Below are positions 4,297-51,732 of a stretch of DNA of 64,000 bases, in pieces (the first letter of the stretch is position 1; the number at the start of each line of letters is the position of its first letter). Location of the stretch: assembly GCF_965641715.1 (NCBI RefSeq), contig NZ_OZ282453.1. One strand, 5' to 3'. The DNA comes from Escherichia coli. GTDB lineage: Bacteria > Pseudomonadota > Gammaproteobacteria > Enterobacterales > Enterobacteriaceae. The translations under genes were made by a program, and so were the position numbers. The notes beneath the pieces are model-generated. The model was not told the origin of the DNA and searched no databases. It saw only the letters and a list, made by a program, of their open reading frames with translations.

Positions 4297-4913
4297 TAGC
4301 GTTGCTCCTGAGTGAGGGAAAGGGGATCCTCCCCGCCATTGGCAAACCAGCTTGCGGCAAGGCGCTGTTTTTCTTTCATCTGACGTTGCAGGCTATCGTC
4401 GGTGATCAGCCGTAACGCCTGATTCGGGCAAGCGCGAACGCAGGCCGGACCTTGTGGCAAGAAATCACACAGGTCGCATTTCACCGCGACGGTCTGGACA
4501 CCCGGTTCCCAGCGCAGCAAAGCATGTTGTGTTGGCGCGTTTTCTTCGCCGTCTTTGAGTGAGCCCTCAGCCTGAAAAACATATTGCGCAGGGGCATTCA
4601 CCGGACGGCTTCCTGAAGCGCTGATTGCGCCAAATGGGCAGACTACGGCGCAAAGCTTGCAGCCAATACAGAGGCTTTCGTTGAGTTGGATCGCATCATC
4701 CCTCGGGGAGATGGCATTGACCGGGCAGACCTGCAGGCAAGGGGCTTCCTCACAGTGATGACACACGACAGGGGCAGTGAGTGTTGACGTCTTCGCCAGG
4801 GCCAGGCGCGGGTGTTGCTGTAAACCTTGCGTTTTATGCACGTCCGAACAGGCAGCGAGACAGGTATTACATCCTGTACACCACAGTGGTTCGGCCACCA
4901 CAAAGCGGTTCAT
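4296..4913 (-). CDS. hyfA: Hydrogenase-4 4Fe-4S ferredoxin-type subunit HyfA
   Basis: ORF 4296-4952. Start moved to Met14 (MNRFVVAEPLWCTGCNTC), which has an AAGGAG RBS, giving 205 aa. Four CxxCxxCxxxC clusters. Confidence 0.92.
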   Translation of the reverse strand: MNRFVVAEPLWCTGCNTCLAACSDVHKTQGLQQHPRLALAKTSTLTAPVVCHHCEEAPCLQVCPVNAISPRDDAIQLNESLCIGCKLCAVVCPFGAISASGSRPVNAPAQYVFQAEGSLKDGEENAPTQHALLRWEPGVQTVAVKCDLCDFLPQGPACVRACPNQALRLITDDSLQRQMKEKQRLAASWFANGGEDPLSLTQEQR

Positions 4914-39132: not shown

Positions 39133-40532
39133 ACACTCGCCAGCTACTGAGCGTCGGTATCGATATCGGCACCACCACCACCCAGGTGATTTTCTCCCAC
39201 CTGGAACTGGTTAACCGTGCGGCGGTGTCGCAGGTGCCGCGCTACGAATTCATCAAACGCGAAATTAGCTGGCAAAGCCCGGTGTTCTTTACCCCTGTCG
39301 ATAAACAGGGTGGTTTAAAAGAAGCGGAACTGAAATCGCTGATTTTAGAGCAATATCAGGCTGCGGGCATTGCGCCGGAAAGCGTTGATTCTGGTGCCAT
39401 CATCATCACCGGTGAAAGCGCGAAAACCCGCAATGCTCGCCCGGCGGTGATGGCGCTCTCTCAGTCGCTGGGCGATTTTGTCGTCGCCAGCGCCGGGCCG
39501 CACCTCGAATCCGTGATCGCCGGTCACGGTGCCGGGGCGCAAACCCTTTCTGAACAACGGCTGTGTCGGGTACTGAATATCGACATCGGCGGTGGCACCG
39601 CGAACTACGCCCTGTTCGATGCCGGAAAAATCAGCGGCACTGCCTGCCTCAACGTCGGTGGTCGCCTGCTGGAAACCGACAGCCAGGGGCGCGTGGTTTA
39701 CGCTCATAAACCGGGGCAGATGATTGTGGATGAGTGCTTCGGCGCAGGCACCGATGCCCGTTCGCTGACCGGCGCGCAGCTGGTGCAGGTTACCCGGCGG
39801 ATGGCAGAGCTGATTGTCGAAGTGATTGACGGAACGCTTTCGCCGCTCGCGCAGGCATTAATGCAAACCGGTTTGCTGCCCGCAGGTGTTACGCCCGAAA
39901 TCATTACGCTTTCTGGCGGCGTGGGCGAATGTTATCGCCACCAGCCCGCCGACCCGTTCTGTTTTGCCGATATTGGCCCGCTTCTGGCAACGGCGCTGCA
40001 TGACCATCCGCGCCTGCGTGAGATGAACGTGCAGTTTCCGGCGCAAACCGTGCGCGCCACGGTGATTGGTGCGGGTGCACATACCCTTTCGCTCTCTGGC
40101 AGCACAATCTGGCTGGAGGGCGTACAACTGCCGCTGCGCAATTTGCCGGTGGCGATCCCAATTGATGAAACGGATCTGGTGGGTGCCTGGCAACAGGCGC
40201 TGATTCAGCTGGATCTTGATCCCAAAACTGACGCGTACGTGCTGGCGCTTCCCGCCTCGCTGCCTGTGCGTTACGCCGCGGTACTGACGGTCATCAACGC
40301 GTTGGTCGATTTCGTCGCGCGTTTTCCGAATCCGAATCCCCTGCTGGTGGTGGCCGGGCAGGACTTTGGTAAAGCTCTGGGCATGTTGTTGCGCCCACAG
40401 CTACAACAACTCCCGTTGGCAGTCATTGACGAAGTGATTGTCCGCGCGGGGGACTATATCGACATTGGTACGCCTCTTTTTGGCGGATCGGTTGTGCCGG
40501 TGACGGTGAAATCACTCGCATTTCCTTCCTGA
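39129..40532 (+). CDS. eutA: Ethanolamine ammonia-lyase reactivase EutA
   Basis: 467 aa; the TGA stop (40530-40532) lies inside the att core of the island. Confidence 0.94.
   Translation: MNTRQLLSVGIDIGTTTTQVIFSHLELVNRAAVSQVPRYEFIKREISWQSPVFFTPVDKQGGLKEAELKSLILEQYQAAGIAPESVDSGAIIITGESAKTRNARPAVMALSQSLGDFVVASAGPHLESVIAGHGAGAQTLSEQRLCRVLNIDIGGGTANYALFDAGKISGTACLNVGGRLLETDSQGRVVYAHKPGQMIVDECFGAGTDARSLTGAQLVQVTRRMAELIVEVIDGTLSPLAQALMQTGLLPAGVTPEIITLSGGVGECYRHQPADPFCFADIGPLLATALHDHPRLREMNVQFPAQTVRATVIGAGAHTLSLSGSTIWLEGVQLPLRNLPVAIPIDETDLVGAWQQALIQLDLDPKTDAYVLALPASLPVRYAAVLTVINALVDFVARFPNPNPLLVVAGQDFGKALGMLLRPQLQQLPLAVIDEVIVRAGDYIDIGTPLFGGSVVPVTVKSLAFPS
40511..40532. repeat. attL (bacterial arm + 8-bp core CTTCCTGA)
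   Basis: atcactcgcatttccttcctga. The core at 40525-40532 is repeated at 51725-51732, and atcact is also shared. Confidence 0.7.
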
Positions 40533-40582
40533 ATACTGTAGTTATCAGGCGTGGCGCTGGGTGGCTGGGTGTTAGTGGGATT

Positions 40583-40602
40583 ATATCCGGCTGTGTATCC
40601 GG
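40583..40602. repeat. GTATCCGG-type repeats near attL (candidate integrase arm-type sites)
   Basis: atatccgg at 40583-40590 and gtatccgg at 40595-40602. Confidence 0.4.
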
Positions 40603-40626
40603 TCGGGGTGATTGGTCTGTATAGCA

Positions 40627-40648
40627 GAAAACCCGGCGCGGGGCCGGG
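40627..40648 (-). terminator. Rho-independent terminator after the Rha-like gene
   Basis: Minus strand reads cccggc-cccgc-gccggg followed by TTTTT. The hairpin is identical to the one at 42316-42337. Confidence 0.8.
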
Positions 40649-40655
40649 TGAACTA

Positions 40656-41216
40656 TCACTCAGGGAACAAGTTGATTTGAAGCAAACTGCCAATGTATTT
40701 ACCAGTGCTTTTAATTTTTCGCTTTGATGGCTTACACGAATTCAGGTTGACACCAGCCTGGCTAGATATTGGCTTGTATTGCCGCTCCGCCAGTACGATC
40801 AGGTCTGCCGCGTCTTTTAGCTTTCCATCGTTAGCCAGTTCCAATGCTCGATCCGCCATTTGCCCGCATTGTTGAATCAGCTTAAGTTGCGATACCTCCA
40901 GTCGCAATTGCTGGATTCGTTCTACCACTTTCGCCCTAATGCGCTTAGTTTCACGCATTCCCATTCTTAATGCCTGGTTGCCAGTAAGTGAGTAAACCTC
41001 TTTTTCTTTCCTGAAGTTTGCGGCTTTACCGTCAGCTTGGACGCGCATTTTATGCGCTTCCAAGAATTCGCCCTCCAATTCATCCCTGATCTTCGCGTTG
41101 AATCTGTCGTTCTTGAGTTCATTTAACCCTTCCGCCTTGCGGATCTGGTTGATTAACTCCAACAATTCATCACTGCGGATACGCCACTCGCTATCAACCT
41201 GTACCAAGTCAAACAT
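40656..41216 (-). CDS. Rha-like phage regulatory / antirepressor-like protein (186 aa)
   Basis: ORF track 40656-41309 begins at a TTG. I prefer the ATG at 41216 (MFDLVQVDSEWRIRSDELLELINQIRKAEG), which has a GGGAG RBS 7 nt upstream. The domain pattern resembles the Phage_pRha family; this is a memory-based judgement, not a search result. Confidence 0.6.
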   Translation of the reverse strand: MFDLVQVDSEWRIRSDELLELINQIRKAEGLNELKNDRFNAKIRDELEGEFLEAHKMRVQADGKAANFRKEKEVYSLTGNQALRMGMRETKRIRAKVVERIQQLRLEVSQLKLIQQCGQMADRALELANDGKLKDAADLIVLAERQYKPISSQAGVNLNSCKPSKRKIKSTGKYIGSLLQINLFPE

Positions 41217-41380
41217 GTTGTTGCTCCCGTTTTGCTGCCATAGGGCAACGGCTCGCCAGCCTTTATCACCTCCTTTAGTTGTTGCGATTCTTAACTGAAT
41301 GGTTATCAAAACGCTGCGTTAATATCATTGATATGTATCAAATTTGTTTTGTGACGCGACAATGCCTTGTGAATATCAAT

Positions 41381-41404
41381 AAAAAACCCAGCGCTATGGC
41401 TGGG
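41381..41404 (-). terminator. Terminator after the XRE-HTH gene
   Basis: Minus strand reads cccagc-catagc-gctggg followed by TTTTTT. Confidence 0.8.
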
Positions 41405-41437
41405 CTTCGTTTAATGAGATGGGATTGAAAGCGGGTT

Positions 41438-42220
41438 TTATTTATCTCCCAGATTGTATTCCCAGTTGGGAAGTAAAGTTATCAGCTTGTCACCTTTCTT
41501 GCCTTTGCCGATCTGGTTGCCGTTCTCGTCTTTCTTGTGTGTGATTTCCTGGTCAACCTTAATCAATCCTCTCTCTTTGGCTTGCTCAATCAGTCGGTAG
41601 AATGCGCCGTTACTAATCGGCTTCCGGTTACCGTCGTTATCCATCGCAGTGATTTTCTGTTGCAGTCCGGCGTTATTGCCCAGGTATTCGCCACCTAACG
41701 CCGCCAGTACCTGACACAACATGCCGACACTGTATTTTTTCGGATTTGGGTTAATCCATTCTTTAGCTCCCATCTCTTTTTTGTCGTTGGGCGCTTGTTC
41801 TGCTGCTACTGCGTTCACCTTTTCATCTCCCATCTTGTTACCGCTTGCTGTGCGCTTAATTTCTTCCAGTTCTCTCTCAAGCTCACCTATACGTAATTCA
41901 CGCTCGATAATTACCCCGCGCAGCACATCATCATCACCGTGAGGGCTTGCCTGAATCCAGTTACCATTGGCGAGCGGTAGGAGGGCATAAATTCCGAACA
42001 GGTCACAAAGCGCGGCAAGTGTATTAAAATCAGGTTCCCGGCGTCCCTCCATCCAGTGGCTAACAGCGCCTTTTGTGACTGGTTCGCCTTTCTTGCTTTT
42101 AACACCCATGCGATCCAGTGCGGCGGCTATCTCTTCGCATTTAATGCCACGACCGCCAGCATAGCCCGCCGCTTTCGCGGCCCCTTTGAGGATGTCGTGA
42201 ATTTTCATTTCGTAACTCAT
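41438..42220 (-). CDS. XRE/cI-type HTH protein with coiled-coil linker and C-terminal putative winged-helix domain (260 aa)
   Basis: ORF 41438-42235. Start moved to MSYEMKIHDILKGAAKAAG, where the GGGAGA RBS is 8 nt upstream. The segment GIKCEEIAAALDRMGV...TKGAVSHWMEGRREPDFNTLAALCDLFG matches the HTH_XRE pattern. Confidence 0.7.
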   Translation of the reverse strand: MSYEMKIHDILKGAAKAAGYAGGRGIKCEEIAAALDRMGVKSKKGEPVTKGAVSHWMEGRREPDFNTLAALCDLFGIYALLPLANGNWIQASPHGDDDVLRGVIIERELRIGELERELEEIKRTASGNKMGDEKVNAVAAEQAPNDKKEMGAKEWINPNPKKYSVGMLCQVLAALGGEYLGNNAGLQQKITAMDNDGNRKPISNGAFYRLIEQAKERGLIKVDQEITHKKDENGNQIGKGKKGDKLITLLPNWEYNLGDK

Positions 42221-42230
42221 AATTTTATCT

Positions 42231-42258
42231 CCCATCTCATGAACTATGGTGGGAGATT
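42231..42258. promoter_or_regulatory. 28-bp box copy 1 (CCCATCTCAT-N9-TGGGAGATT), overlapping the RBS of the HTH gene
   Basis: Near-identical box at 42939-42966. ATCTCCCA (42227-42234) and TGGGAGAT (42250-42257) form a perfect 8-bp inverted repeat. Confidence 0.5.
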
Positions 42259-42315
42259 AACACGGCGGGCCTGTGGCGGGTAAGTGTAACGGGAGAGAAT
42301 GTTGATTCAGGTCAC

Positions 42316-42337
42316 AAAAACCCGGCGCGGGGCCGGG
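42316..42337 (-). terminator. Terminator after the 158-aa gene
   Basis: aaaaacccggcgcggggccggg is identical over 21 nt to the terminator at 40628-40648. Confidence 0.8.
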
Positions 42338-42359
42338 CTGTGTTAGTACGTCGTTGCTC

Positions 42360-42836
42360 TTAGTTCATGAGGAGATCTTTAAATTCGACGCCGTATTCAT
42401 GGGCAATGTCGCCTCTATAGTAGATGTTATCTTTCAGGATATATCCGACGTTTCTCAGGACGTGAGAACACTCTCTTACTGCTGCCTCTTTACCCCTTAA
42501 AACATCCTCCCCGCTAACTTCTTCGCCGCTGTACTTCACTGCGATGTTGTCTGCTGCACGCTCTGCTGCTTCCAGGCAATTAATCTTCACTTTTCCCCGA
42601 TTCTCCCAGGCAAAATCGCGGCCATAAATCCCCATTGCATCAACCATCTTTTGCGCAGTAGTGCGCTCATCCACCCATTCAGTGCGTTCGAACTTCTCGC
42701 CAGCAGCTACCCTTGCCGCCAGTTGTTCGTGTTGAGTCTGTACGGCCGCAGCCTCTTCTTCCCATTTGCCTTGCTCGTTGTATACGATGAAGCCAGTGAT
42801 GACTGCAGCGATTAGTAACTTGTCCAGAAAATTCAT
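42360..42836 (-). CDS. Membrane-anchored (N-terminal TM) protein of unknown function, 158 aa
   Basis: Strong RBS AGGAGGA 6 nt before the ATG. MNFLDKLLIAAVITGFIVY signal-anchor, then a soluble domain with two Cys. Confidence 0.7.
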   Translation of the reverse strand: MNFLDKLLIAAVITGFIVYNEQGKWEEEAAAVQTQHEQLAARVAAGEKFERTEWVDERTTAQKMVDAMGIYGRDFAWENRGKVKINCLEAAERAADNIAVKYSGEEVSGEDVLRGKEAAVRECSHVLRNVGYILKDNIYYRGDIAHEYGVEFKDLLMN

Positions 42837-42938
42837 AGCTTCCTCCTATCTGTTCAATTACCCGGCATCTCTTGCCGTTGAACGTATTAAACAAAATGCC
42901 AGTCAGGGATAAAGCGATCTGCGTCATAAAGTCCATCC

Positions 42939-42966
42939 CCCATCTCATTGATATTGATGGGAGATT
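42939..42966. promoter_or_regulatory. 28-bp box copy 2, about 100 nt upstream of the 158-aa gene
   Basis: CCCATCTCAT-tgatattga-TGGGAGATT. On the minus strand it overlaps a candidate promoter, CTGACC-N18-CAATAT. Confidence 0.45.
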
Positions 42967-43041
42967 GTTTAATTGGTCAGAAATTAAGCGTTTATGTGCG
43001 CTGCCGGGTATCCACCTCCTATCTGAAGATGGAAAGATGGG

Positions 43042-43123
43042 TGATATAATGTGATGGCAATTGGTGGATTGCGTGGTTTTTACAATGATAAGGGGCTGGC
43101 GTAATGCTGGCCCCTTTGTTTAT
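43042..43123 (+). ncRNA. Candidate ~65-nt plus-strand sRNA (promoter through terminator)
   Basis: Perfect extended -10 TGaTATAAT at 43042-43050. First hairpin gcaat-N6-attgc at 43057-43072. An 11-bp terminator stem at 43090-43116 has two G-U pairs, so it only folds well on the plus-strand RNA. It is followed by TTTGTTTAT. Confidence 0.4.
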
Positions 43124-43162
43124 CCGGTATCCGGTATCCGGTATAAGCGGGCGTGTATCCGG
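43120..43162. repeat. Internal cluster of TATCCGG/GTATCCGG repeats
   Basis: tTATCCGGTATCCGGTATCCGG (three tandem 7-mers) plus gtatccgg at 43155-43162. The segment cgtgtatccggtagcgggga resembles ctgtgtatccggtcggggtga at the left end. Confidence 0.6.
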
Positions 43163-43356
43163 TAGCGGGGATATGGGCGCGTGTACGTGAAATCTGGCAA
43201 ATTAGCAGGGTAATTGTGAGGGAATTTTTGCGTAGGAGCGTTTGTGGCTGGTAGCTCAAAATTGAGCTTTGCTTTTCATTCAATGACTTAGGTTAATTCT
43301 AGCAAAACGCTAGGATTGAATGTCCGCCAGTCTGCTTCCCCTAGCGTGGGATTTGG

Positions 43357-45723
43357 TCAACGTCTGCGCGGCTGCAAAATTCCTCCGGGTCGTTGTGATT
43401 CACGCTGCATCAGTCGCATCGCTGTGTTTTCTATGGTCTGCTGCAGCGCTTTTGAGTCTTCCTCTGTCCAGCCGTTGTTAGCCTGGATGTTGAACGTATT
43501 GTTCATCGTGATTCCGCCACCGCCTACCAGATCGCGGCCCGGTGTAACTCGTCCACCTTCACCCGGGATCATGTACTGTTTCCCGCCAGTGGATGTAAAT
43601 AGCTCCGGTACTCCGTGCTCCCCGACCCTATAAAGATTGCCACCGTTAACAGCCCCGCCGTTGTAACGAGCGCCAGCCAGTCCAAGCGTTTTGGCGGCAG
43701 CTACGCCAGTAGTAAGCCCGGTAAGTCCAGTGGCCCCAGCGCCGCCCATCGTGGCTACGTTAGCCAGGTATGCAGGAGTGGCCCACGCCGATCCTAATGC
43801 TGTAGCCTCTGCTAGTGCTTTAGCTGTTGCGGCTGCGTTTGCGGCTTCACCAATTAGCTGCTGTTTAACCCACTCAGCACCCATCTGGACAATGCCACCG
43901 ACCACAGAAGACAGGATCGTACTGCCAACGTTGGCAAGTGACTCTTGCAGCGATTGAGTACCGTTTATCAGTCCGGTAAATGCGCTGCCAGCGCCAGACG
44001 ATAACCCATCGACCATATTCCCGATGAGGCCATTTATATCGCTTTGTTTCTTCCACTGCTGCCACTGGAGATCCAGAACCCTTTGTTCATGTGCGATCTC
44101 TTCCTGGCGCAACTGCTCTTCGGTAGCCCCAAGATCTAGAAGCATTTGCTTGCGAACAGCCCATTCATTTTGGATCTTCTGTATTGGGTCAATCTGAGCT
44201 TTCTGCTTATCCTGCTCACTGACAAGACTGTCCCATTTCGCTTTCTGCTTGCGGATGGCTTCAGCTTCATCAATTGCTGCGAGTGTACTTGCTCGCTGTT
44301 TCGCGCTGATCAACCGTTTCTGCTCAGCCGCTTCCAGGTCTTCTACTGCTTTTTTCCGTTTATTGAGCGCCGCTAGTTCGGGATCGTATTTTTCCACCAA
44401 TGAAAGGCCGCTTGCTTCCTTACGTTCGCGTTCTCTTTGTGCCTGTTTGGCTGCCTGCTTAGCGGCGTTTTCTGCTTGTTTGGCTGCTCTTTCTTTCGCC
44501 CTGGTGTTCTCTTCTTCCTTGCGCTTATTCTCTTCTAACTCCTTGTTTTGTTCGCGTAATTTAACGATTTCCTCATGATGCGCCTTTGTCAGCTGGCCTT
44601 CTTTCAGTGCCCGATCTATATCAGCGTTTGCGTTGCCTTTTAGCTGTTCCTGTTTAACTTGCAGATGTTTAATCATCATTTCGCCAGTGGCAATCGCTGC
44701 CGCAGACGCTCCAGCATTCAGAGCTTCATTTAACGCTCTCTGACGTTCTTCTGCTGTTAATGCCTCGTTGCTGTATCGAAGTAGCGCATCAACGTATTTC
44801 TCCAGTTCTGCGCGGCCTGCCGCAGTTGCTGGTTCCATTGCTTTTAGGATGCTCAGAAGGCTTTGCGCTTCATAGGAAGACGGGTTTTTGCGGAACTGCG
44901 CCATAGCGTTATAAAGCGCCATAGCTTCACCCTCTGTGATTCTGTACTTAGCTCCCAGCCCTTCAATGACCGCTGATAACTGTTTGCCAAGCGCTGCACC
45001 GAATGCGCCTTCCTTGCTTAATTTGTTGAGCACTTCACTCAGTGAATTTCCTGACACGCCCAGCGCGTCGAGTTCTCTTGCTACCGTTCCCAGGTCGCCG
45101 CCTTTCATCCATCCTGCATTAGAAAATTCAGTGATAGCCCGGCCCGCTTCCCGCGTTTCTTCCTGGAGTGTTTTTAGCGCCCGCACGGCCTGCTCTTTCA
45201 TTACGGCGGCGGCAATGGCGTTGTTCTGTGTGGCTTCGTAATATGAATCACTGAAAGCGTTAACGCCCTGGGTGGATTTGCCGATCACGGCGTCGATTGA
45301 TGCTAATGCCTCCTTCATCCTTTCAGCGCTATCCGTTGCGTCGTCCATGCTGTCCGTTAGGCTGTTGGCAATCGCCCCGCCAATAGCCATCACCGCCCCC
45401 ATGACCGCACCGCCAGTACCGAAGGCAGCGGCAAGTTGTGCACCCTGCACAGCGAACGCCTGGAGCGCATTACCGCCCATCTGCAATTGAGTGGCAAGGT
45501 CTGCGATCTGGTATGATGCGTTACGGATTGCCGGGGAAAGGTTGGTTTTGACTGCGGCAGACGTTTTGGTCATCTGCGTGTTCAGTTTTTTGACGCCACT
45601 GTCAGCGCGTTTTGCGCCGCGTTCTATACTGTCAAAAGCCTGGTCCGCTTCTTGTTGTGCTGCCAGGAGTTTACCAGTACGGGCGTCGACCTCATAGTAT
45701 ATGGTCCCAAGATTCCCACTCAT
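43357..45723 (-). CDS. Phage tail tape-measure protein, lambda gpH-like, 788 aa, apparently full length
   Basis: The N-terminal YQIADLATQLQMGG segment, the long E/K/A/Q coiled-coil core, and the Gly-rich hydrophobic C-terminal region ending GG..YRVGEHGVPELF ... NNTFNIQANNG match my memory of gpH domain order. Confidence 0.8.
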   Translation of the reverse strand: MSGNLGTIYYEVDARTGKLLAAQQEADQAFDSIERGAKRADSGVKKLNTQMTKTSAAVKTNLSPAIRNASYQIADLATQLQMGGNALQAFAVQGAQLAAAFGTGGAVMGAVMAIGGAIANSLTDSMDDATDSAERMKEALASIDAVIGKSTQGVNAFSDSYYEATQNNAIAAAVMKEQAVRALKTLQEETREAGRAITEFSNAGWMKGGDLGTVARELDALGVSGNSLSEVLNKLSKEGAFGAALGKQLSAVIEGLGAKYRITEGEAMALYNAMAQFRKNPSSYEAQSLLSILKAMEPATAAGRAELEKYVDALLRYSNEALTAEERQRALNEALNAGASAAAIATGEMMIKHLQVKQEQLKGNANADIDRALKEGQLTKAHHEEIVKLREQNKELEENKRKEEENTRAKERAAKQAENAAKQAAKQAQRERERKEASGLSLVEKYDPELAALNKRKKAVEDLEAAEQKRLISAKQRASTLAAIDEAEAIRKQKAKWDSLVSEQDKQKAQIDPIQKIQNEWAVRKQMLLDLGATEEQLRQEEIAHEQRVLDLQWQQWKKQSDINGLIGNMVDGLSSGAGSAFTGLINGTQSLQESLANVGSTILSSVVGGIVQMGAEWVKQQLIGEAANAAATAKALAEATALGSAWATPAYLANVATMGGAGATGLTGLTTGVAAAKTLGLAGARYNGGAVNGGNLYRVGEHGVPELFTSTGGKQYMIPGEGGRVTPGRDLVGGGGITMNNTFNIQANNGWTEEDSKALQQTIENTAMRLMQRESQRPGGILQPRRR

Positions 45724-46012
45724 AATATCTTTATCCGCGTTGTGCGGACACCTCCGATTATTCTTTACTCTAATAATTTCACAATGAAACAGTTTATTGC
45801 CGCTTCAGTGGCTTCGTGTTCCGGTTTGCTTCGATCAATCACAAAAAATACAGCTTAATAGAATCAATGGCTTATAAAGTTGTATTAGCTATGTTTCTTC
45901 GTCCGTGCCACTGAAAACCCAGTTTTTCCAATGGAATCAATACTGATATGTATCCATACTGTTTTTCACATAATGTACGTTATGCGCACTACGGGAAACG
46001 TACTGAATTTAT

Positions 46013-46243
46013 TTACTGGTCGCCGTTCAGTTCATGCAGAGTCTGTTCTGGCAATGAATCCAGCCAGTTTTCTGCATCCTCCCTGTAACACTCCAGGATG
46101 CAACGGTTTGTGAAGTTGATGAAAGCGGTCAGTGATTCTGCTTCGTCGTTCCTGTGCGTTCTCCTGGCGTGCTTGCGTAGTCGTTTCGCGTCTGCCAGTT
46201 GGTCATTGAGTATCTTCAGTCTGTCGGCAATATCATCGTTCAT
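46013..46243 (-). CDS. Hypothetical 76-aa helical protein
   Basis: GGGAGAG RBS 5 nt upstream of the ATG; protein-like charged helical composition; no family recognised. Confidence 0.55.
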   Translation of the reverse strand: MNDDIADRLKILNDQLADAKRLRKHARRTHRNDEAESLTAFINFTNRCILECYREDAENWLDSLPEQTLHELNGDQ

Positions 46244-46378
46244 GTCGTCTCTCCCTCGCGCGCGCGTCGTACTTGTCCGAAAATTACCCCCATAAAAGCG
46301 CCCCTCATATAGTGCAAAATCCCGGCTGACGCGGATCTCAGTGGGTTTTAGCAGTGAAAACTGACATCAAAAACGGCT

Positions 46379-46426
46379 CGCTAAGGTCCGCTAAGTATCC
46401 GCTATCGTTCGCTAACCCCCCGCTAA
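46379..46426. repeat. Five phased CGCTAA (minus strand TTAGCG) direct repeats
   Basis: Copies start at 46379, 46389, 46400 (CGCTAT), 46410 and 46421. The spacings of 10, 11, 10 and 11 bp equal one helical turn. Confidence 0.85.
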
Positions 46427-46430
46427 CCTA

Positions 46431-46796
46431 TTAGATATCGCATCCAACGCTATTGAGCTGGCTATGTATATCGGCGCGAATTAACTTCAGGCGTTTACAA
46501 AATTCGCGTTCTTCCGAATTAAGCTCGCGGCCACCTTGTTTCGAGGCAATGAGCTTGTTGATGGTGGAAAGCGAATATTCACTCCATATACGAAGCATTT
46601 GTCGCTTCATTGGTTGCTCGCTCAATGGTGAGTTTTTCAGGTCTGACACGCGCTCTGCGACGGTTCTTGCGATGCCTTGTACCACTCGTAGTGCCAACAT
46701 GATGATTTTCTCCGGACTTGTGCTAATATAGTTCCCGAACATTGTTTCGAGACTGCTTATCCTGTTTGTCTTGTCCGATTTGTTCATTGGTCGCAT
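46431..46796 (-). CDS. Hypothetical 121-aa protein
   Basis: ORF with protein-like composition (…IIMLALRVVQGIARTVAERVSDL…) but no obvious SD. A hairpin lies just upstream, and the stop abuts the CGCTAA array. Confidence 0.5.
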   Translation of the reverse strand: MRPMNKSDKTNRISSLETMFGNYISTSPEKIIMLALRVVQGIARTVAERVSDLKNSPLSEQPMKRQMLRIWSEYSLSTINKLIASKQGGRELNSEEREFCKRLKLIRADIHSQLNSVGCDI

Positions 46797-46838
46797 TGTT
46801 AAGTCAGCCGGGGTAATTCCCGGCTTTCTTTTATCCGA

Positions 46839-47381
46839 TCAGTACCGAATCCCTATCGCATTGAATACGCGTTTCCGTTGCTCAGCTTCAGGATCGGCGG
46901 CCATTTCTGGTTCTGGCTCCGGCATAGACGGGGCGGCATCAAAATGCTCAATTTCACGACCGAAATACGAGTTCAGGTCAATACCTGCCGAACTATCCAC
47001 TCCATCAAAATAGCGACGCTGTTCCTCGGTGAGACAGCTACCCAGACGTTCCTCAACCTGCGCCATAAACTCAGCATCCGGTGAGAAGTACTCATCCGGA
47101 GTCGGAGCACCGCTCTGTTTGTGCATCTCCATTTTCTCTGCGTTCGTTTTCAGCCCGGCAATGCGTTTCTCCAGTCCGGCGGCTTTAATAGCGTCAGCAA
47201 CGATTTGTGGGATCTGCGGTTTAATTATTTCGATAACTTCATTGCTGATTAATTTAAACTGGGCCATACGGATCGCTTTAATCTGCTTATTTAACAGTGC
47301 GCGTTCCCCTTCGTTGGCGGTTTTATCACGCTGTGCTACCAGTTCATCGCCTTTGTTTGTCAGTACATCAAATGCGTCCAT
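46839..47381 (-). CDS. Hypothetical 180-aa protein with acidic, Pro-rich C-terminal part
   Basis: Strong RBS GGAGGAGG; starts 17 nt after the stop of the 108-aa ORF. Confidence 0.65.
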   Translation of the reverse strand: MDAFDVLTNKGDELVAQRDKTANEGERALLNKQIKAIRMAQFKLISNEVIEIIKPQIPQIVADAIKAAGLEKRIAGLKTNAEKMEMHKQSGAPTPDEYFSPDAEFMAQVEERLGSCLTEEQRRYFDGVDSSAGIDLNSYFGREIEHFDAAPSMPEPEPEMAADPEAEQRKRVFNAIGIRY

Positions 47382-47398
47382 TGTCTTTCCTCCTCCGA

Positions 47399-47725
47399 TT
47401 ATTTAAAAGTGCTTATTGACACGCCGAAACGACGACTTAATTCAAAAAGGAGTCGCGCCTTTGCAGTGCCTTCCATGTCTTCCGGCATTTCAGACTGAAG
47501 TTTATCAGCTACTTCATCAACAAGTGGCCGAACCGTTTCCACGAACTTGTCCGCAATATAATCAGCAGAACGCATCACTTTTTCCTGGAATTCCTCACGG
47601 CGTACCTGGGCGGCTGATTTAGGGGCTGTCGTGCGCTGAAAATAACTGTCTAATGAATGCATGGCATCTGCTCCTTTTACTTTGATTGCTGTTATTTCTT
47701 TAATTGTGTTTGCTTTGATTTTCAT
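47399..47725 (-). CDS. Hypothetical 108-aa protein
   Basis: AAGGA RBS; first gene downstream of alpA in the same orientation. Confidence 0.55.
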   Translation of the reverse strand: MKIKANTIKEITAIKVKGADAMHSLDSYFQRTTAPKSAAQVRREEFQEKVMRSADYIADKFVETVRPLVDEVADKLQSEMPEDMEGTAKARLLFELSRRFGVSISTFK

Positions 47726-47801
47726 GCTGCCTATTCCTTCAGAAATTGCGGTAGTTTGCTTTTTAAATCAATAAGTTATTTGATAATCTCAGTAGCTGTT
47801 T

Positions 47802-47993
47802 TCATTGGTGGCGAGCGCCTTTGTTTTTATAGAATTCCAAAATCTCAGATCGGATAAACTTAATTCTTGAGCCAATCGGACTGACCGGGACGGGCCAGCC
47901 TTTAATCTTGTTCATCCACCGGAATATTGTCCGACGGGTAACGCCGAATAAAGCTGCTACCTCGTTAACCGTCATTAATTCGCTATCATTCAT
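47802..47993 (-). CDS. AlpA-family (Phage_AlpA/HTH_17) transcriptional regulator / excisionase-like protein, 63 aa
   Basis: LMTVNEVAALFGVTRRTIFRWMNKIKGWPVPVSPIGSRIKFIRSEILEF is the typical AlpA/MerR-like HTH. GAGGTGAG RBS. Confidence 0.85.
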   Translation of the reverse strand: MNDSELMTVNEVAALFGVTRRTIFRWMNKIKGWPVPVSPIGSRIKFIRSEILEFYKNKGARHQ

Positions 47994-47996
47994 GTT

Positions 47997-48046
47997 CTCA
48001 CCTCAAAAAGTAGCGGTGAGGAAAATATGGAGAAAACCCTCACCGC
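47997..48046 (-). promoter_or_regulatory. Terminator-like leader hairpin immediately upstream of alpA; one arm duplicates the SD
   Basis: mRNA sense: GCGGTGAGG-N16-CCTCACCGC (9-bp perfect stem), then UACUUUUU, then GAGGUGAG (SD), then AAC-AUG. The 3' arm can also pair with the SD (CUCACC/GGUGAG). Confidence 0.55.
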
Positions 48047-48090
48047 GCCCTGAATGAAATTAAAGACCAACATTACTGTTGATACTTATT

Positions 48091-48096
48091 ATTATA
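48091..48096 (-). promoter_or_regulatory. Candidate -10 (perfect TATAAT) for the alpA operon
   Basis: Minus strand reads ggaaTATAATaa, about 95 nt upstream of the alpA ATG. The -35 is weak (ATGTGA). Confidence 0.3.
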
Positions 48097-48185
48097 TTCC
48101 TCCTGTCCCTGTTTCACATCTTTTACCATATAGTGAAAGGGGATATTCTGTAATGTTTACAAAACTTTTAATTAGCAAAAAATAA

Positions 48186-48306
48186 TTGCGCATCTCACGT
48201 AATGCAGGGATAATATTACTCAAGGGCTGGTTGCCCTTACTCAAAATGTGATCTATAACTACAACGATCTATTTCACTTCCCCGCTTTCTCCGGCGGGAT
48301 TTTTTT
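48186..48306 (+). ncRNA. Candidate ~85-nt plus-strand sRNA (promoter through terminator)
   Basis: TTGCGC-N17-GATAAT at 48186-48214. 5' hairpin aagggc-tggtt-gccctt at 48222-48238. 3' hairpin cccgc-N8-gcggg followed by a run of seven T at 48300-48306. Confidence 0.3.
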
Positions 48307-49118
48307 GCCTGCAATCTGGCACCATTGCGCACATTAAAATTAGATGCCATTTAAAAGCGATATAACGCGTTCTGCCGGGCTTAATTTTGGCTATCCACTT
48401 GGAAGGGTAAGCCTGTTTTGATTCGTCTGGCGTGGAATGGTGCGGCGGTAATATCAGATCTCAGCGTTCTGCGTGGTGGGATGAAATAGCCTGGCAGGAT
48501 TTGCGTGTGGTTTGCTCTCCCAAAAAATGGGGTAATGGCGCTGGCTGGATGGCAGGACTCCGCGCTGATTACTGGATGGCTGAAAATTTAATGAAATCGC
48601 ATCAATTTTAATGCGTCTAAATCGCTCTGTGGCGACGTGAAGTTTTCAGGTAAGCAAGTGTAGCTGTGTGGTGTGTTCATCGCGTTACTGGCACCATTCC
48701 GTTCGAATTTGGCGCTATCAGGATGGTTTGCGGTGGTCGGCGGCGGGGATAAACTTGCTTGAGTGGTCACCTCAGCCTGCTGTGCGTCGTGTGATGGTAC
48801 TGTCTGCACCTGGCTATACGCTGCTTTGCTGCTGTTTCCTGTCTGGTCTGTATACGCGATAAAACCCATCGGCTTTACAGTGAGTGAGTTTTTTGCGCTT
48901 TGCTTTCCATTCGGTTTGCTTACTGCTGCTGTGTGTCTGTGCGGTAGCTCAGAAAGCTGTCGATGATAACCATCACTGCCAGACCGTCTTTTGAGCTGGC
49001 GATTGCTCGAAGTCTTCCGAAGGTCCGCTGGGCTTGTTGCTTGTTTGTGTTCTTTTAAAATGCGCGCCTCTTACTTTCTCTTAAAAAGAAAAAAGGAATA
49101 TACAGATCTCATACTATG

Positions 49119-49273
49119 TGTGTCCCAAATGTCACACGTCATGGCCTGACCTGTATCCCAAATGTCACACGTCACCCTCTGACCTGTATCCCAAATGTCA
49201 CACGTACCTGTGTCCCAAATGTCACACGTCTATTGTTAATTAATTGTTGACCTGTGTCTCAAATGTCACACGT
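49119..49273. repeat. Five direct 21-bp iterons TGTRTCCCAAATGTCACACGT (putative ori)
   Basis: Copies at 49119-49139, 49152-49172, 49185-49205, 49209-49229 and 49253-49273 (one mismatch). Start spacings are 33, 33, 24 and 44 bp. Four copies are preceded by (G)ACCTG. An AT-rich tract with AGATCT lies at 49081-49110. Confidence 0.85.
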
Positions 49274-49290
49274 CTGTTGATGGTTTAAGT

Positions 49291-49320
49291 AATAAAAAGG
49301 GCCACCATTTTAGGTGACCC
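49291..49320 (-). terminator. Terminator after the Rep-like gene
   Basis: Minus strand reads gggtcacc-taaaat-ggtggccc followed by TTTTTATT. Confidence 0.7.
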
Positions 49321-49338
49321 ATTGATGCGTTTTAGTCG

Positions 49339-50103
49339 TTATCTTGCGTTCTCGACCTGAAAAAGCATTCTGTATTTTCTTGCGTGCTGACCAATAACAT
49401 ATTCCCCGTATGGCTCAATGAGTCCTAACTCAACCAGGATTTTCATCTGGCGAATTACGGTGCGGCGATTCATGCCCCATTCATCAGCTATTTTTGCCTG
49501 GCAAACTTCAGATACATAAGATCCATCATTCTGCTTTCTTGCTGCTGATGCAATGCTGGATAATACGCTCCAGGCTGTAGCTTTAGCTTTATTCTCGCAA
49601 CCACTTCTGACAAATGCCTTACGTGCCGCACCCAAACAGACATAACTGCAATAAATTCCTTTTTCTTCCGTTTGGTATTGTGTCTCTTTATCCTGCATGG
49701 CTTCCGGTTCTTCCGGCGCTTCCTGCTGTGGTGCTGTCTGCGAAGTTTTAGCGGCCATACTGCGTAGCTCGTTCACGATATCAGTAGCTGATTTCTTCTC
49801 GCTTTTAGTTTCCTGCGTGACTGATAAATACTCACCTTGTAACGCCAGGAAGTCAGCGCGGGCGTTTGCCTGGCTTTGTTCTGGTGATTCAGGTTCTGCA
49901 TCGGCAGGTGATGAAATCGGTGATACACGCGCCCAGCCTGTTTTGGCGTTGCATTCCCAGCGATAACCATTAAAGCGGATATCATTCAGGCCATCATCAA
50001 TGGCGCTCCGTACTTCTTCCGGGATCGCGTCGATTTTCTGAAGGCTGTGTTTACCGAGTGATTCGCCTTGCCGTGGGGCGTAGGCGGTTGGTAAAATATT
50101 CAT
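49339..50103 (-). CDS. Putative iteron-binding replication initiator / winged-helix DNA-binding protein, 254 aa
   Basis: AAGGAGAA RBS. The C-terminal segment IADEWGMNRRTVIRQMKILVELGLIEP is a wHTH-like motif. A long acidic Q/E/P-rich linker is present. The gene is directly followed by a terminator and the iteron array. No primase or helicase motifs. Confidence 0.55.
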   Translation of the reverse strand: MNILPTAYAPRQGESLGKHSLQKIDAIPEEVRSAIDDGLNDIRFNGYRWECNAKTGWARVSPISSPADAEPESPEQSQANARADFLALQGEYLSVTQETKSEKKSATDIVNELRSMAAKTSQTAPQQEAPEEPEAMQDKETQYQTEEKGIYCSYVCLGAARKAFVRSGCENKAKATAWSVLSSIASAARKQNDGSYVSEVCQAKIADEWGMNRRTVIRQMKILVELGLIEPYGEYVIGQHARKYRMLFQVENAR

Positions 50104-50173
50104 GTGGGATTTCTCCTTTTTACTTGTTTCCCATATCGCCCGGATTGGTTAGCGGCCTTCCGGGCTTTTTGTT
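50068..50173 (+). ncRNA. Candidate countertranscript (antisense) RNA to the rep leader, ~70 nt, with its promoter
   Basis: TTGCCG-N18-TGgTAAAAT (extended -10) at 50068-50097 places the TSS near 50104, abutting the rep ATG. The transcript is complementary to the rep SD (ttctcctt at 50111-50118). It ends at hairpin gcccgga-N14-tccgggc followed by TTTTTGTT (50138-50173). Confidence 0.5.
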
Positions 50174-50317
50174 GCGTTGATCCTATTTTCGATCCCCGGA
50201 TTTTTTATTACAAACTTGGCTTAATCATTGATTTTATTGGTATAGCTGTATAAAAGGATAACAGGATAAAAGGGTGATAGATTGTGTAACCTGTTAACCT
50301 TTTATACCAGTAAGGCG

Positions 50318-50341
50318 AAAGAAAAGCCGGACGAATCCGGC
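50318..50341 (-). terminator. Terminator after the integrase gene
   Basis: Minus strand reads gccgga-ttcg-tccggc followed by TTTTCTTTC. Confidence 0.75.
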
Positions 50342-50349
50342 CTTATAGT

Positions 50350-51555
50350 TCACGGCTCCAGCGGATTACCGCCACCAGCCAATATCTGGTCGATGGCGTC
50401 GCTGTAGTCCTGCATCATGGCCCGCCGTTGCTTCAGATAGGCCGCCTGGTTATAAACGCCGCGCACACCTTTCGGAACGTGGGCCAGTTGGATTTCGATC
50501 CAGTCTGGTGAGTATCTGCCGTACTCGTTAAGTGCGGTTGAAAAGGTGGTTCGCCAGCCGTGACCAGTGGCTATCGACTTGTATCCGATACGCTCCAGGG
50601 CTTTAAGGATGGCACTGGCTGAAAGTGGCTTATCCATGAATCGACCAGGGAACACAAAAGCACTGTATCCGCTGCGGGTAAACTGGTCCTGTAATAGCTC
50701 GACCGCCTGCCGGGATAGCGGGACCACATGCGGGCGGCGGGCCTTCATGACTTCAGCGGGTAGGGTGATGGTTGCCGATTCCAGATCTACCCACTCCCAG
50801 CGCATTAAACGCAGTTCTGCGGTCCTTAGGGCGCTTAATATAAGCAAACGTATTGCCGTCTGAATCTGAACGCTCCCGGCTCTCTCAAGGGCTTTGTAGA
50901 AGGCCGGGATTTCGTTAATTTGTATCCATGCGTTATGGCCTGGGCGTCGGGCTTTCAATGCCGTGTCCAGATCTGCAACCGGATTTCGGTTAACCAGTTC
51001 AGTGATAACGGCAAATTTGAAGATTTCCCCTATACGCTGCCGTAATTTTCGGGCCTGTTCCGGCGCGGTGCGCTCTTTCTTCTGAAGCAATGCCAGCACG
51101 TCACGGGCCGTTATATCGACAATCGACCGCTTGCCAAGTACCGGATAAACATCTTTCTCCAGTGCCGATCTAACTTGTTTCGTGTAAGACTCAGACCAAC
51201 CGCTCACTCTGGTAGCAAACCAGTCTTCCGCTACCGTCTTAAAACTTGCCGCCATGTTGAGCGCATCAATGGCTTTCTCCTTGCGCGCTTCTTCCATTGG
51301 GTCAATTCCCTGGGCGATGAGTAAACGGCTCTCTGTGGCGCGTTTACGTGCTTCCTTCAAGGTAATCAGCGGATATACCCCAATAGCCTGTAACCGCTCT
51401 TTCTTGTCTATCCAGTACCGGAATCGCCAGTATTTGCTGCCATTGGGATGTACCAGCAAGAACAGGCCAGGTGTCTGTGAATCGGTGAGTTTGTAGGGCT
51501 TGTCCTTCGGCTGGGCGGCCTCTATGCCCTTTGCTGTCAGTGGTGTCTTGCTCAA
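50350..51555 (-). CDS. P4-family tyrosine integrase (N-terminal arm-binding DUF4102-type domain), 401 aa; occupies the position of K-12 intZ
   Basis: TTG start with a GAGGT RBS. KPYKLTDSQTPGLFLLVHPNGSKYWRFRY is the typical P4-integrase N-terminus. C-terminal catalytic residues are present: ...HGWRTTFST...LAHV...GVYNQAAY. Confidence 0.9.
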   Translation of the reverse strand: MSKTPLTAKGIEAAQPKDKPYKLTDSQTPGLFLLVHPNGSKYWRFRYWIDKKERLQAIGVYPLITLKEARKRATESRLLIAQGIDPMEEARKEKAIDALNMAASFKTVAEDWFATRVSGWSESYTKQVRSALEKDVYPVLGKRSIVDITARDVLALLQKKERTAPEQARKLRQRIGEIFKFAVITELVNRNPVADLDTALKARRPGHNAWIQINEIPAFYKALERAGSVQIQTAIRLLILSALRTAELRLMRWEWVDLESATITLPAEVMKARRPHVVPLSRQAVELLQDQFTRSGYSAFVFPGRFMDKPLSASAILKALERIGYKSIATGHGWRTTFSTALNEYGRYSPDWIEIQLAHVPKGVRGVYNQAAYLKQRRAMMQDYSDAIDQILAGGGNPLEP

Positions 51556-51557
51556 AA

Positions 51558-51604
51558 CCGGATACCTCGATCTAACGACTCGATAACCCCGCTCATGTAT
51601 CCGT
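51558..51604. repeat. GTATCCGG-type motifs near attR (candidate arm-type sites)
   Basis: ccggatac (inverted) at 51558-51565, overlapping the int RBS, and gtatccgt at 51597-51604. Confidence 0.35.
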
Positions 51605-51717
51605 CGCGTTCGGTTGCGTTCGGCAGGATAAGTAACGGGCGTATTAAGTGGAACACCTTACAGGACAAGGGATAACGATGAAATAGAATTGTTCGAATGC
51701 TGTGAAAAATGTTACTC

Positions 51718-51732
51718 ATCACTTCTTCCTGA
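51718..51732. repeat. attR (element-borne imperfect copy of the eutA 3' end)
   Basis: atcacttcttcctga, followed directly by gggaacgacttATG of eutB, the expected uninterrupted eutA-eutB junction. Confidence 0.7.

Follow-up and report, generated by a model that had tools for sequence, protein, structure and literature searches.

A candidate iteron-type origin with exchangeable specificity in CPZ-55-type islands of Escherichia coli

The iteron plasmids pPS10, F, R6K, P1 and RK2 encode Rep_3-type initiators with tandem winged helices (WH1-WH2), and phage lambda encodes O, a small initiator that sits on about four phased repeats through a winged helix, next to an AT-rich region, the remaining part of O bringing in the helicase loader. 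In the PLEs (elements that resemble phage-inducible chromosomal islands), satellites of Vibrio cholerae, the binding domains of the initiator RepA covary with the iterons of ori and work only as cognate pairs (PMC8263062); this initiator has neither helicase nor primase and depends on phage functions (PMC8263062, PMC7145576). The origins of phage-inducible chromosomal islands (PICIs) lie 3' of rep and combine iterons with AT-rich DNA (PMC6092414). Here we describe a locus that is closest in logic to PLE RepA/ori and PICI origins, though a member of neither family. It is located in a 64,000-nt stretch of an Escherichia coli genome (assembly GCF_965641715.1, contig NZ_OZ282453.1; ‘the window’, to which positions refer unless another record is named), within a CPZ-55-type island, and comprises a gene for a 254-amino-acid (aa) protein followed by an array of direct repeats. 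An earlier note had proposed an iteron-type origin or, alternatively, an operator array at this site. From comparative sequence evidence we favour the first of these: the repeats are probably iterons of a replication origin, with the 254-aa protein as its sequence-specific initiator.

The repeat array, its flanks and the neighbouring protein

Following the gene in its direction of transcription, the features of the locus are:

49339–50103, minus strand: candidate initiator gene, the open reading frame (ORF) of the 254-aa protein
49342–49656, minus strand: coding region of the C-terminal winged helix, the part that varies between specificity classes
49289–49320, minus strand: intrinsic terminator of the 254-aa gene, GGGTCACC-TAAAAT-GGTGGCCC and then TTTTTATTAC, between gene and array
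49253–49273, plus strand: repeat copy 5, TGTGTCTCAAATGTCACACGT, with one mismatch; nearest to the gene and missing in the four-copy variant L010
49230–49252, no strand: AT-rich spacer inside the array, separating copy 4 from copy 5 and not conserved; ranked third among the least stable 40-mers of the region
49209–49229, plus strand: repeat copy 4 (this and the next two from repeat search and pattern scan)
49185–49205, plus strand: repeat copy 3
49152–49172, plus strand: repeat copy 2
49119–49139, plus strand: repeat copy 1, farthest from the gene and abutting the AT-rich flank
49050–49118, no strand: AT-rich candidate DNA-unwinding element, with the least stable 40-mer at 49078–49117 and GATC at 49105–49108

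Five copies of TGTRTCYCAAATGTCACACGT occur within 49119–49273, with zero expected by chance in the 64-kb window. A pattern scan with TGTRTCCCAAATGTCACACGT, allowing up to three mismatches, returned exactly five matches in the window (at 49119, 49152, 49185, 49209 and 49253), all on the plus strand and with zero or one mismatch, as compared to 0.00 matches in 100 dinucleotide shuffles. This bears out the five direct copies noticed earlier, and the repeat search likewise recovered their start-to-start spacings of 33, 33, 24 and 44 bp. Four copies had been described as preceded by (G)ACCTG; these four do carry a 5' extension, but it comprises only (G)ACC, since TG already opens the 21-mer. The full repeat unit is therefore 24–25 nt long, (G)ACCTGTRTCCCAAATGTCACACGT, which reads ACGTGTGACATTTGGGAYACAGGT(C) on the strand of the 254-aa gene. 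That most copies fall on one helix face holds only roughly, with offsets of ~51, 103 and 69 degrees at 10.5 bp per turn. Three or more regularly phased repeats of ~17–25 bp in the same orientation are a feature of iteron-type theta origins, and such repeats are present here in five copies and in relatives at 22–26 bp. Among near-identical E. coli islands, the array counts four, five or six copies; the four-copy form (L010) is devoid of both the internal AT-rich spacer and the fifth copy, implying that this spacer is no fixed or essential part of the element.

The array starts 66 bp 3' of the stop codon of the 254-aa ORF, in line with its proposed position directly downstream of that gene, and no iteron-like operator was found at the gene's promoter. 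Terminators equivalent to that of the 254-aa gene were located in L002, L008 and L016 by terminator scan and in L003, L017 and L020 by eye. Both AT-rich tracts of the original proposal are present, one including AGATCT (49104–49109) inside 49078–49118, the other being ctattgttaattaattgtt between copies 4 and 5. The nearest-neighbour stability of the 40-mer at 49078–49117 is -42.7 kcal/mol, the region averaging -54.5 (standard deviation 3.7), which makes it the minimum of the 1.7-kb region, 1 bp from the end of the array. In six of eight loci, with unrelated repeats, the least stable 40-mer of 1.7 kb lies 0–9 bp from the gene-distal array end, and the corresponding segment ranks second or third in the other two; L002, L003, L006, L014 and L017 show the placement seen in the window. 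The AT-rich flanks of L002, L006 and L008 contain short AT-rich sub-repeats of their own.

With respect to the 254-aa protein, residues 1–150 are conserved and mostly predicted to be disordered, and residues ~150–254 form a winged helix-turn-helix (HTH). The AlphaFold2 model contains a single winged helix, with a predicted local distance difference test score of 75–91 at residues 150–250 and below 50 at residues 1–25 and 64–149. Two motifs of the ~150-residue N-terminal region, MNILPTAYAPRQGES and KSEKKSAxDIVNELRSKAAAKTSQ, are present in every family member (alignment A1), even in short forms lacking residues 17–90. The C-terminal winged helix, on the other hand, falls into discrete, mutually divergent classes in the same alignment. 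Homologues are almost confined to E. coli: a search of species-representative genomes and IMG/VR with alignment A1 found no relative, and tblastn of the 254-aa protein against phages gave no match. Searching plasmids by tblastn with the relatives P0012 and YffL (of E. coli K-12) returned nothing useful, the lone YffL match being a Klebsiella plasmid record with K-12 sequence, and the metagenomic contigs of P0044 and P0047 are too short, ending ahead of any array.

Covariation of protein and repeat in islands and plasmids

Each class of winged helix pairs with its own repeat sequence at the same position beyond the gene terminator, yielding at least seven protein–repeat pairs including that of K-12 YffL, and the order of gene, terminator, array and AT-rich flank was constant in every relative examined. 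The pairs are:

The window and P0004: ACGTGTGACATTTGGGAYACAGGT, four to six copies among window-type islands, five in the window (33, 33, 24, 44)
P0006 (L014): ACCCCTGACACCAGAAACAGGGGT, spaced 45-24-33-33 on the same scaffold as the window
P0012 (L002): AACTCGTTATCATTCTGAGCAC, six copies followed by three AT-rich 15-mers
P0030 and P0010 (L003-5, L015): CACCCCCACCAAATTTGGGCTAC, 23-bp spacing
P0032 (L016): ACCCTACCCCAAAATGACCTACC, five to six copies at 23 bp
P0026 (L006): AGACCCCCACCAAAAATTGGCTAC, two copies
K-12 YffL (L008): GGTGGGTCAAAAGTTGCCGTTA, four copies at 23 bp

L014 has kept the spacing scaffold of the window, but with a different repeat and, in P0006, a different recognition helix. 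In P0010, the winged helix is of class C although the N-terminus is of the long form, and the repeats next to its gene are also of class C, suggesting that specificity follows the C-terminal domain. Across loci, the repeats share one orientation and are mostly asymmetric, at spacings of 22–26 bp or longer (e.g., 33 or 44). Perfect inverted arms were seen only in the L014-type repeat, and dimer binding on palindromic repeats was therefore rejected as a general rule.

Comparing the window with L002 and L003 in sliding windows, sequence identity is ~0.8–0.97 over 50240–49700 (apart from the internal deletion of the L003 short form), drops to a background of ~0.4 over 49700–49040 and returns to 0.77–1.0 over 49040–48900. 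The drop suggests that winged helix, terminator, repeats and AT-rich flank were exchanged as one cassette:

49040–49700, minus strand: exchangeable specificity cassette of ~660 bp, comprising winged-helix coding region, terminator, repeats and AT-rich flank

This joint exchange makes binding of the 254-aa protein to the neighbouring repeats very likely, and we are highly confident that the array is a real element and the predicted binding site of this protein. As for prevalence, 155 of 5,426 complete genomes have some match, and in 68 of them a high-identity match covers at least 80% of the module.

The laboratory strain K-12 possesses its own version of the module: at 4258–5046 of L008 (MG1655, NC_000913.3), the product of yffL is a weak homologue whose C-terminus contains an HTH, and the gene is followed by a terminator and the four 23-bp direct repeats GGTGGGTCAAAAGTTGCCGTTA. 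At 3001–3765 of L016 (GCA_024475565.1), the module—a 190-aa protein with five to six repeats at 23 bp—comes after tape-measure and small genes, not an integrase, and next to ychJ/purU, as might be expected of a tandem or rearranged island that occupies a different site in the chromosome.

Three circular E. coli plasmids of 8,009, 9,003 and 9,653 bp (four records from two studies) are related to the island family and carry the module, each with a homologue of the 254-aa protein and, after its gene, an array of its own. The 8,009-bp plasmid, represented by NZ_CP062859.1 (L017) and its exact circular permutation NZ_CP062904.1, was found only as a plasmid in the 5,426 complete genomes. Its 195-aa homologue shares 42% identity with the 254-aa protein over residues 132–254 of the latter (E 2e-30). 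Downstream of this gene lies a 107-aa ORF and then a terminator. Five to six 22-bp repeats CCATGTCCCACCACACACCACC come next, preceded by a perfect DnaA box and followed by an AT-rich 40-mer, beyond which another perfect DnaA box stands in inverted orientation. Plasmids pRHB29-C22_2 (9,653 bp) and pRHB34-C15_2 (9,003 bp), both from the other study, show a similar layout, with four copies of CCATTGCGTATAGATTCTATAC and one perfect DnaA box beside the array. On all three plasmids, perfect DnaA boxes occur only beside the array, where ~0.07 per plasmid would be expected by chance. In L017, the sole plasmid screened for other replicons, neither an RNAI/ColE1 signature nor a replication protein by PHROGs was found, and no replicon type is assigned to it.

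Shared between L017 and the CPZ-55 family are the alpA-like gene and homologous versions of yffM, yffO and several small ORFs; the recombinase of L017 is of the serine type. More broadly, L017, L018, L019 (CP057337.1) and L020 (CP057168.1) are non-mobilizable, 8.0–9.7 kb in size, and carry alpA-like and small-ORF genes—homologous to those of the island family in the case of L017 and similar in layout in L019 and L020—with a serine recombinase replacing the tyrosine integrase. In L017, a TerS-like gene is present as well. These small plasmid relatives look like episomal satellites or integrative plasmids. At 4691–5581 of L017, many copies of the motif GATGTAAC occur, some of them as 12-nt tandem repeats within an XRE-annotated gene and others just upstream of the 195-aa gene, in what looks like a separate operator system of the plasmid.

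Origin function, known systems and competing explanations

How might such a module work? The C-terminal winged helix would bind the 24-nt repeats, as the covariation of protein and repeat suggests, and, judging by the anatomy of the locus, several proteins on phased sites could then distort the DNA and open the AT-rich segment at ~49050–49118. By analogy with PLE RepA and lambda O, the disordered conserved N-terminus, which has no enzymatic domain, would recruit the helicase and replisome of the host or of a helper phage. Repeated swapping of the cassette of binding domain, terminator, repeats and AT-rich flank between similar islands would have given rise to distinct specificity (incompatibility) classes, the K-12 CPZ-55 version being yffL with its four 23-bp repeats. 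Origin function is favoured by the mostly asymmetric repeats in one orientation, the unstable flank, the terminator between gene and array with no consistent promoter after the arrays, the lack of any other candidate replication function on the island and the presence of the module on free plasmids.

Several observations weigh against this interpretation. No DnaA box with up to one mismatch exists in 48560–49345, nor any perfect box in the island. AT-rich DNA could also be promoter DNA, and a weak sigma-70-like match (GGGACA-18-TATATT, 49126–49097) overlaps repeat 1 and the AT-rich flank. Covariation and cassette exchange are equally expected of a repressor–operator immunity module. The 254-aa protein scores 23.9 bits against Pfam HTH_36 (PF13730), below the gathering threshold of 25, and has no match to Rep_3, RepA_N or Phage_rep_O (Pfam) or to an NCBIfam model among curated initiator families. 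Fold searches recovered a generic winged helix, topped by the transcription factors CooA, CodY and MarR; the initiator folds DnaD-NTD and RepA_N scored similarly and were not preferred, similarity to the RepA_N structures 4pta/4pt7 being no better than to generic winged helices. Finally, CPZ-55 of K-12 excises rarely (<1e-5), is regarded as cryptic and has not been reported to replicate (PMC3105296).

With regard to the label ‘Rep-like’, which the earlier note had attached to the gene, PHROGs returned weak matches to the HTH of ‘replication initiation protein’ families, but the protein could be assigned to none of the curated families of initiators, contains neither a helicase nor a primase domain, and has a generic winged-helix fold. 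Pfam hits are confined to sub-threshold HTH_36 and HTH_Crp_2 at residues 180–235. Class-C relatives reach 39.4 bits for HTH_36, and all 80 of the remote winged-helix relatives sampled match this model, 37 of them also DnaD_N, 26 RP-C and 15 RepL.

Of the known systems, PLE RepA–ori resembles the module in that its initiator is without helicase and primase, binding domain and iterons covary and are swapped as a module, and the non-binding part is conserved. The architecture, however, is reversed: in PLE RepA, the RepA_N domain is N-terminal and the conserved part C-terminal, whereas the island protein—without a RepA_N match in Pfam—couples a conserved N-terminus to a variable C-terminal winged helix of HTH_36 type. 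The PLE origin has three semi-palindromic repeats of ~30 bp as opposed to four to six mostly asymmetric repeats of ~24 bp in the island family. Gram-negative PICIs, exemplified by the pri-rep-ori of EcCICFT073, share with the island a size of ~11 kb, an integrase, one-directional organization, alpA and an origin—a candidate one in the island—immediately 3' of the initiator gene. Yet the PICI Rep/Pri-Rep has primase and helicase functions, whereas the 254-aa protein contains neither domain and no island ORF has a Pri-Rep primase/helicase domain by Pfam or PHROGs. In PICIs, two iteron sets flank the AT-rich region, and in the island family one set is followed by it; the window does display one plus four copies around the internal spacer, but the four-copy variant does not, and the conserved AT-rich DNA is outside the array. 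The position of the module also differs, between int and alpA in the island and downstream of alpA in PICIs.

Iteron plasmids have direct repeats spaced at ~22 bp, an adjoining AT-rich unwinding element, an adjacent initiator gene and flanking DnaA boxes, all established on the plasmid side and recurring here, the DnaA boxes on the plasmid relatives; the 254-aa protein, by contrast, consists of a single winged helix and a disordered region with no Rep_3 match, and there is neither a DnaA box in the window island type nor an iteron-like operator at the gene promoter. Lambda O/ori-lambda is alike in its small winged-helix initiator, phased repeats and adjoining AT-rich region, but O binds through its N-terminal domain, the origin is inside the O gene, and the 254-aa protein has no Phage_rep_O match. 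Without RepA_N, Pri-Rep primase/helicase or the tandem winged helices of Rep_3, the module lacks a defining feature of the PLE, PICI and iteron-plasmid families, respectively, and it is best described as a variant form of iteron origin whose initiator would bind through a C-terminal domain of HTH_36 type, carried on a scaffold that is conserved and disordered.

Among the alternatives, the one that survives best, though we consider it unlikely, is that the array serves as an operator or upstream activator site through which the 254-aa protein, as master repressor or activator, regulates the downstream leader/alpA operon, the protein classes then being immunity types. The gene comes right after int, where islands of the SaPI (Staphylococcus aureus pathogenicity island) type have their repressor (PMC6092414), covariation and cassette swapping suit immunity modules as well, and a promoter-like match, albeit weak, spans repeat 1 and the AT-rich flank. 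Four to six mostly asymmetric repeats in the same orientation at 22 bp or more are, however, untypical of operators; consensus scans, a crude measure, found no consistent sigma-70 promoter after the arrays of L003, L008 and L016, and alpA is ~1.1 kb away with its own conserved upstream block. On the plasmid relatives, moreover, the only perfect DnaA boxes of the replicon flank the arrays, and L017 has its separate operator-like GATGTAAC motifs around the XRE-annotated gene. An iteron-type origin is thus supported over an operator array by the covariation, the form of the repeats, the melting-prone flank, the plasmid relatives and the terminator without a consistent promoter.

Could the array be an origin in episomal relatives but an inactive relic in the window island, its DnaA box lost and replication abandoned? 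We regard this as improbable. A DnaA box with one mismatch persists between terminator and first repeat in L003, L014 and L016, and the plasmids have perfect ones, while the window array has none nearby within one mismatch; decay would also suit the cryptic status and rare excision (<1e-5) of CPZ-55 (PMC3105296). Against decay, the ORF is intact, the module recurs at high identity in the 68 genomes mentioned above, and the repeats are nearly perfect (0–1 mismatch), with a copy number still changing in whole units. DnaA boxes were likewise not found in L002, L006 and L008, which have different cassettes, suggesting a DnaA-independent mode (e.g., through a helper phage) instead of decay.

It is very improbable that the array is a centromere-like site for a binder of the TubR/ParR kind or an accessory pac/cos packaging site: TubR and the pNOB8 centromere-binding protein are among the Foldseek matches, centromeres are direct-repeat arrays too, and relatives encode a small-terminase-like protein, but neither the island nor L017 has a ParA, ParM or TubZ partner, an integrated island needs no partition, specificity tracks the winged-helix protein and not the TerS-like gene, and DnaA boxes with adjoining unstable DNA are indicative of an origin. 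The array was also rejected as a set of integrase arm sites, being >1 kb away from both ends of the island and varying in sequence with the winged-helix protein and not with int.

Island setting and implications for the CPZ-55 family

Beyond the module, the following features of the island were recognised:

40533–51724, minus strand: CPZ-55-type island, 11.2 kb, between eutA and eutB (CPZ-55/intZ site)
50350–51555, minus strand: intZ-type tyrosine integrase (Pfam Arm-DNA-bind_3, Phage_int_M and Phage_integrase; RefSeq name intZ)
48590–49030, minus strand: conserved, apparently non-coding block of ~450 nt starting GGACCTTCGGAAGACTTCGAGCAATCGCCAGC, common to islands with different repeat types (alignments A2 and A4)
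47802–47993, minus strand: AlpA-like HTH_17 gene, the next recognisable gene beyond the module

The island is flanked by the 8-bp repeat CTTCCTGA (40525–40532 and 51725–51732), in agreement with the target-site duplication reported for the insertion site of CPZ-55, the cryptic prophage of K-12 (PMC6379469). All recognisable genes are on the minus strand, in the order integrase, 254-aa ORF, terminator, repeats, AT-rich stretch, ~450 nt of conserved non-coding DNA, AlpA-like gene, small ORFs and tape-measure-like gene. The traits of Gram-negative PICIs—integrase, alpA, one-directional transcription and a size of ~10–15 kb—are found together in this 11.2-kb island. Pfam and PHROGs identified no helicase, primase, polymerase, partition or other replication gene among its ORFs, and NCBIfam and PADLOC returned no match. 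An Rfam scan of the whole island and of plasmid L017 also came back empty, arguing against a known noncoding RNA and against a ColE1/RNAI origin.

The tape-measure-like protein (788 aa; 43357–45723, minus strand; PHROG 1538, E 8e-112), an unusual cargo in a small island, has its best phage homologues in temperate coliphages of the mEp021 group (52–60% identity), making these phages possible helpers. The small-terminase-like gene of relatives, which matches Pfam Sf6_terminase in L002-L005 and has a yffO homologue in K-12, gave no tblastn match in the window island, a variant that may lack this gene. The tape-measure-like gene and the TerS-like genes of relatives may hint at the induction, packaging and transfer by a helper phage that characterise Gram-negative PICIs; IMG/VR yielded no match.

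In the conserved block at 48590–49030, there is no conserved ORF, no RNA covariation (covariation term -0.48), no Rfam match and no RefSeq-annotated gene; it may serve as leader, as packaging site or as a cis element of some other kind. A likeness to lambda cosN, seen by eye, was dropped upon finding no match in 50,697 phage records. Between the integrase stop and the start of the 254-aa gene, a 21-nt inverted repeat within family-conserved DNA (50248–50307; 90% complementary, 18-nt spacer) may be a regulatory site for the promoter of that gene. On the strand opposite to the island genes, 48156–48305 (plus strand) harbours a promoter-like TTTACA-16-AAAAAT and, ~100 nt on, a strong terminator, CCCGCTTTCTCCGGCGGG followed by T7. 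Located just upstream of the alpA-like gene and conserved in L002 and L003, this element may give rise to a small antisense transcript or act as a terminator for incoming transcription.

In the literature searched, neither a replicon nor a satellite nature nor a function of YffL is described for CPZ-55. We tentatively suggest that the CPZ-55 family, including CPZ-55 of K-12 with yffL, could be an unrecognised lineage of small integrative satellites or plasmids. Its minimal initiator would be helicase-free, with a disordered, conserved N-terminus that recruits the replisome of the host or helper phage. Winged helix, iterons and unwinding element would together form a plug-in cassette that sets the specificity of the origin and is swapped to escape incompatibility or origin-targeting phage counter-defences, as in PLEs. 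Iterons, AT-rich DNA and an adjacent initiator being textbook components, such an origin would come to the specialist as a neat extension and not as a surprise. If true, the uncharacterised K-12 gene yffL and the intergenic repeats beside it would gain a function, and CPZ-55, long taken for a dead prophage remnant, would join a family whose replicon works and which has cousins among free-living plasmids. After the Vibrio PLEs, and independently of them, this would be a second case of small mobile elements exchanging origin specificity in modular fashion, here in a host amenable to genetics, and the compact module (~1.2 kb for gene and origin), with its several apparently orthogonal specificities, may offer a set of compatible replicons. 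What the locus suggests is a family of elements, so far undescribed, whose origin cassettes can be swapped.

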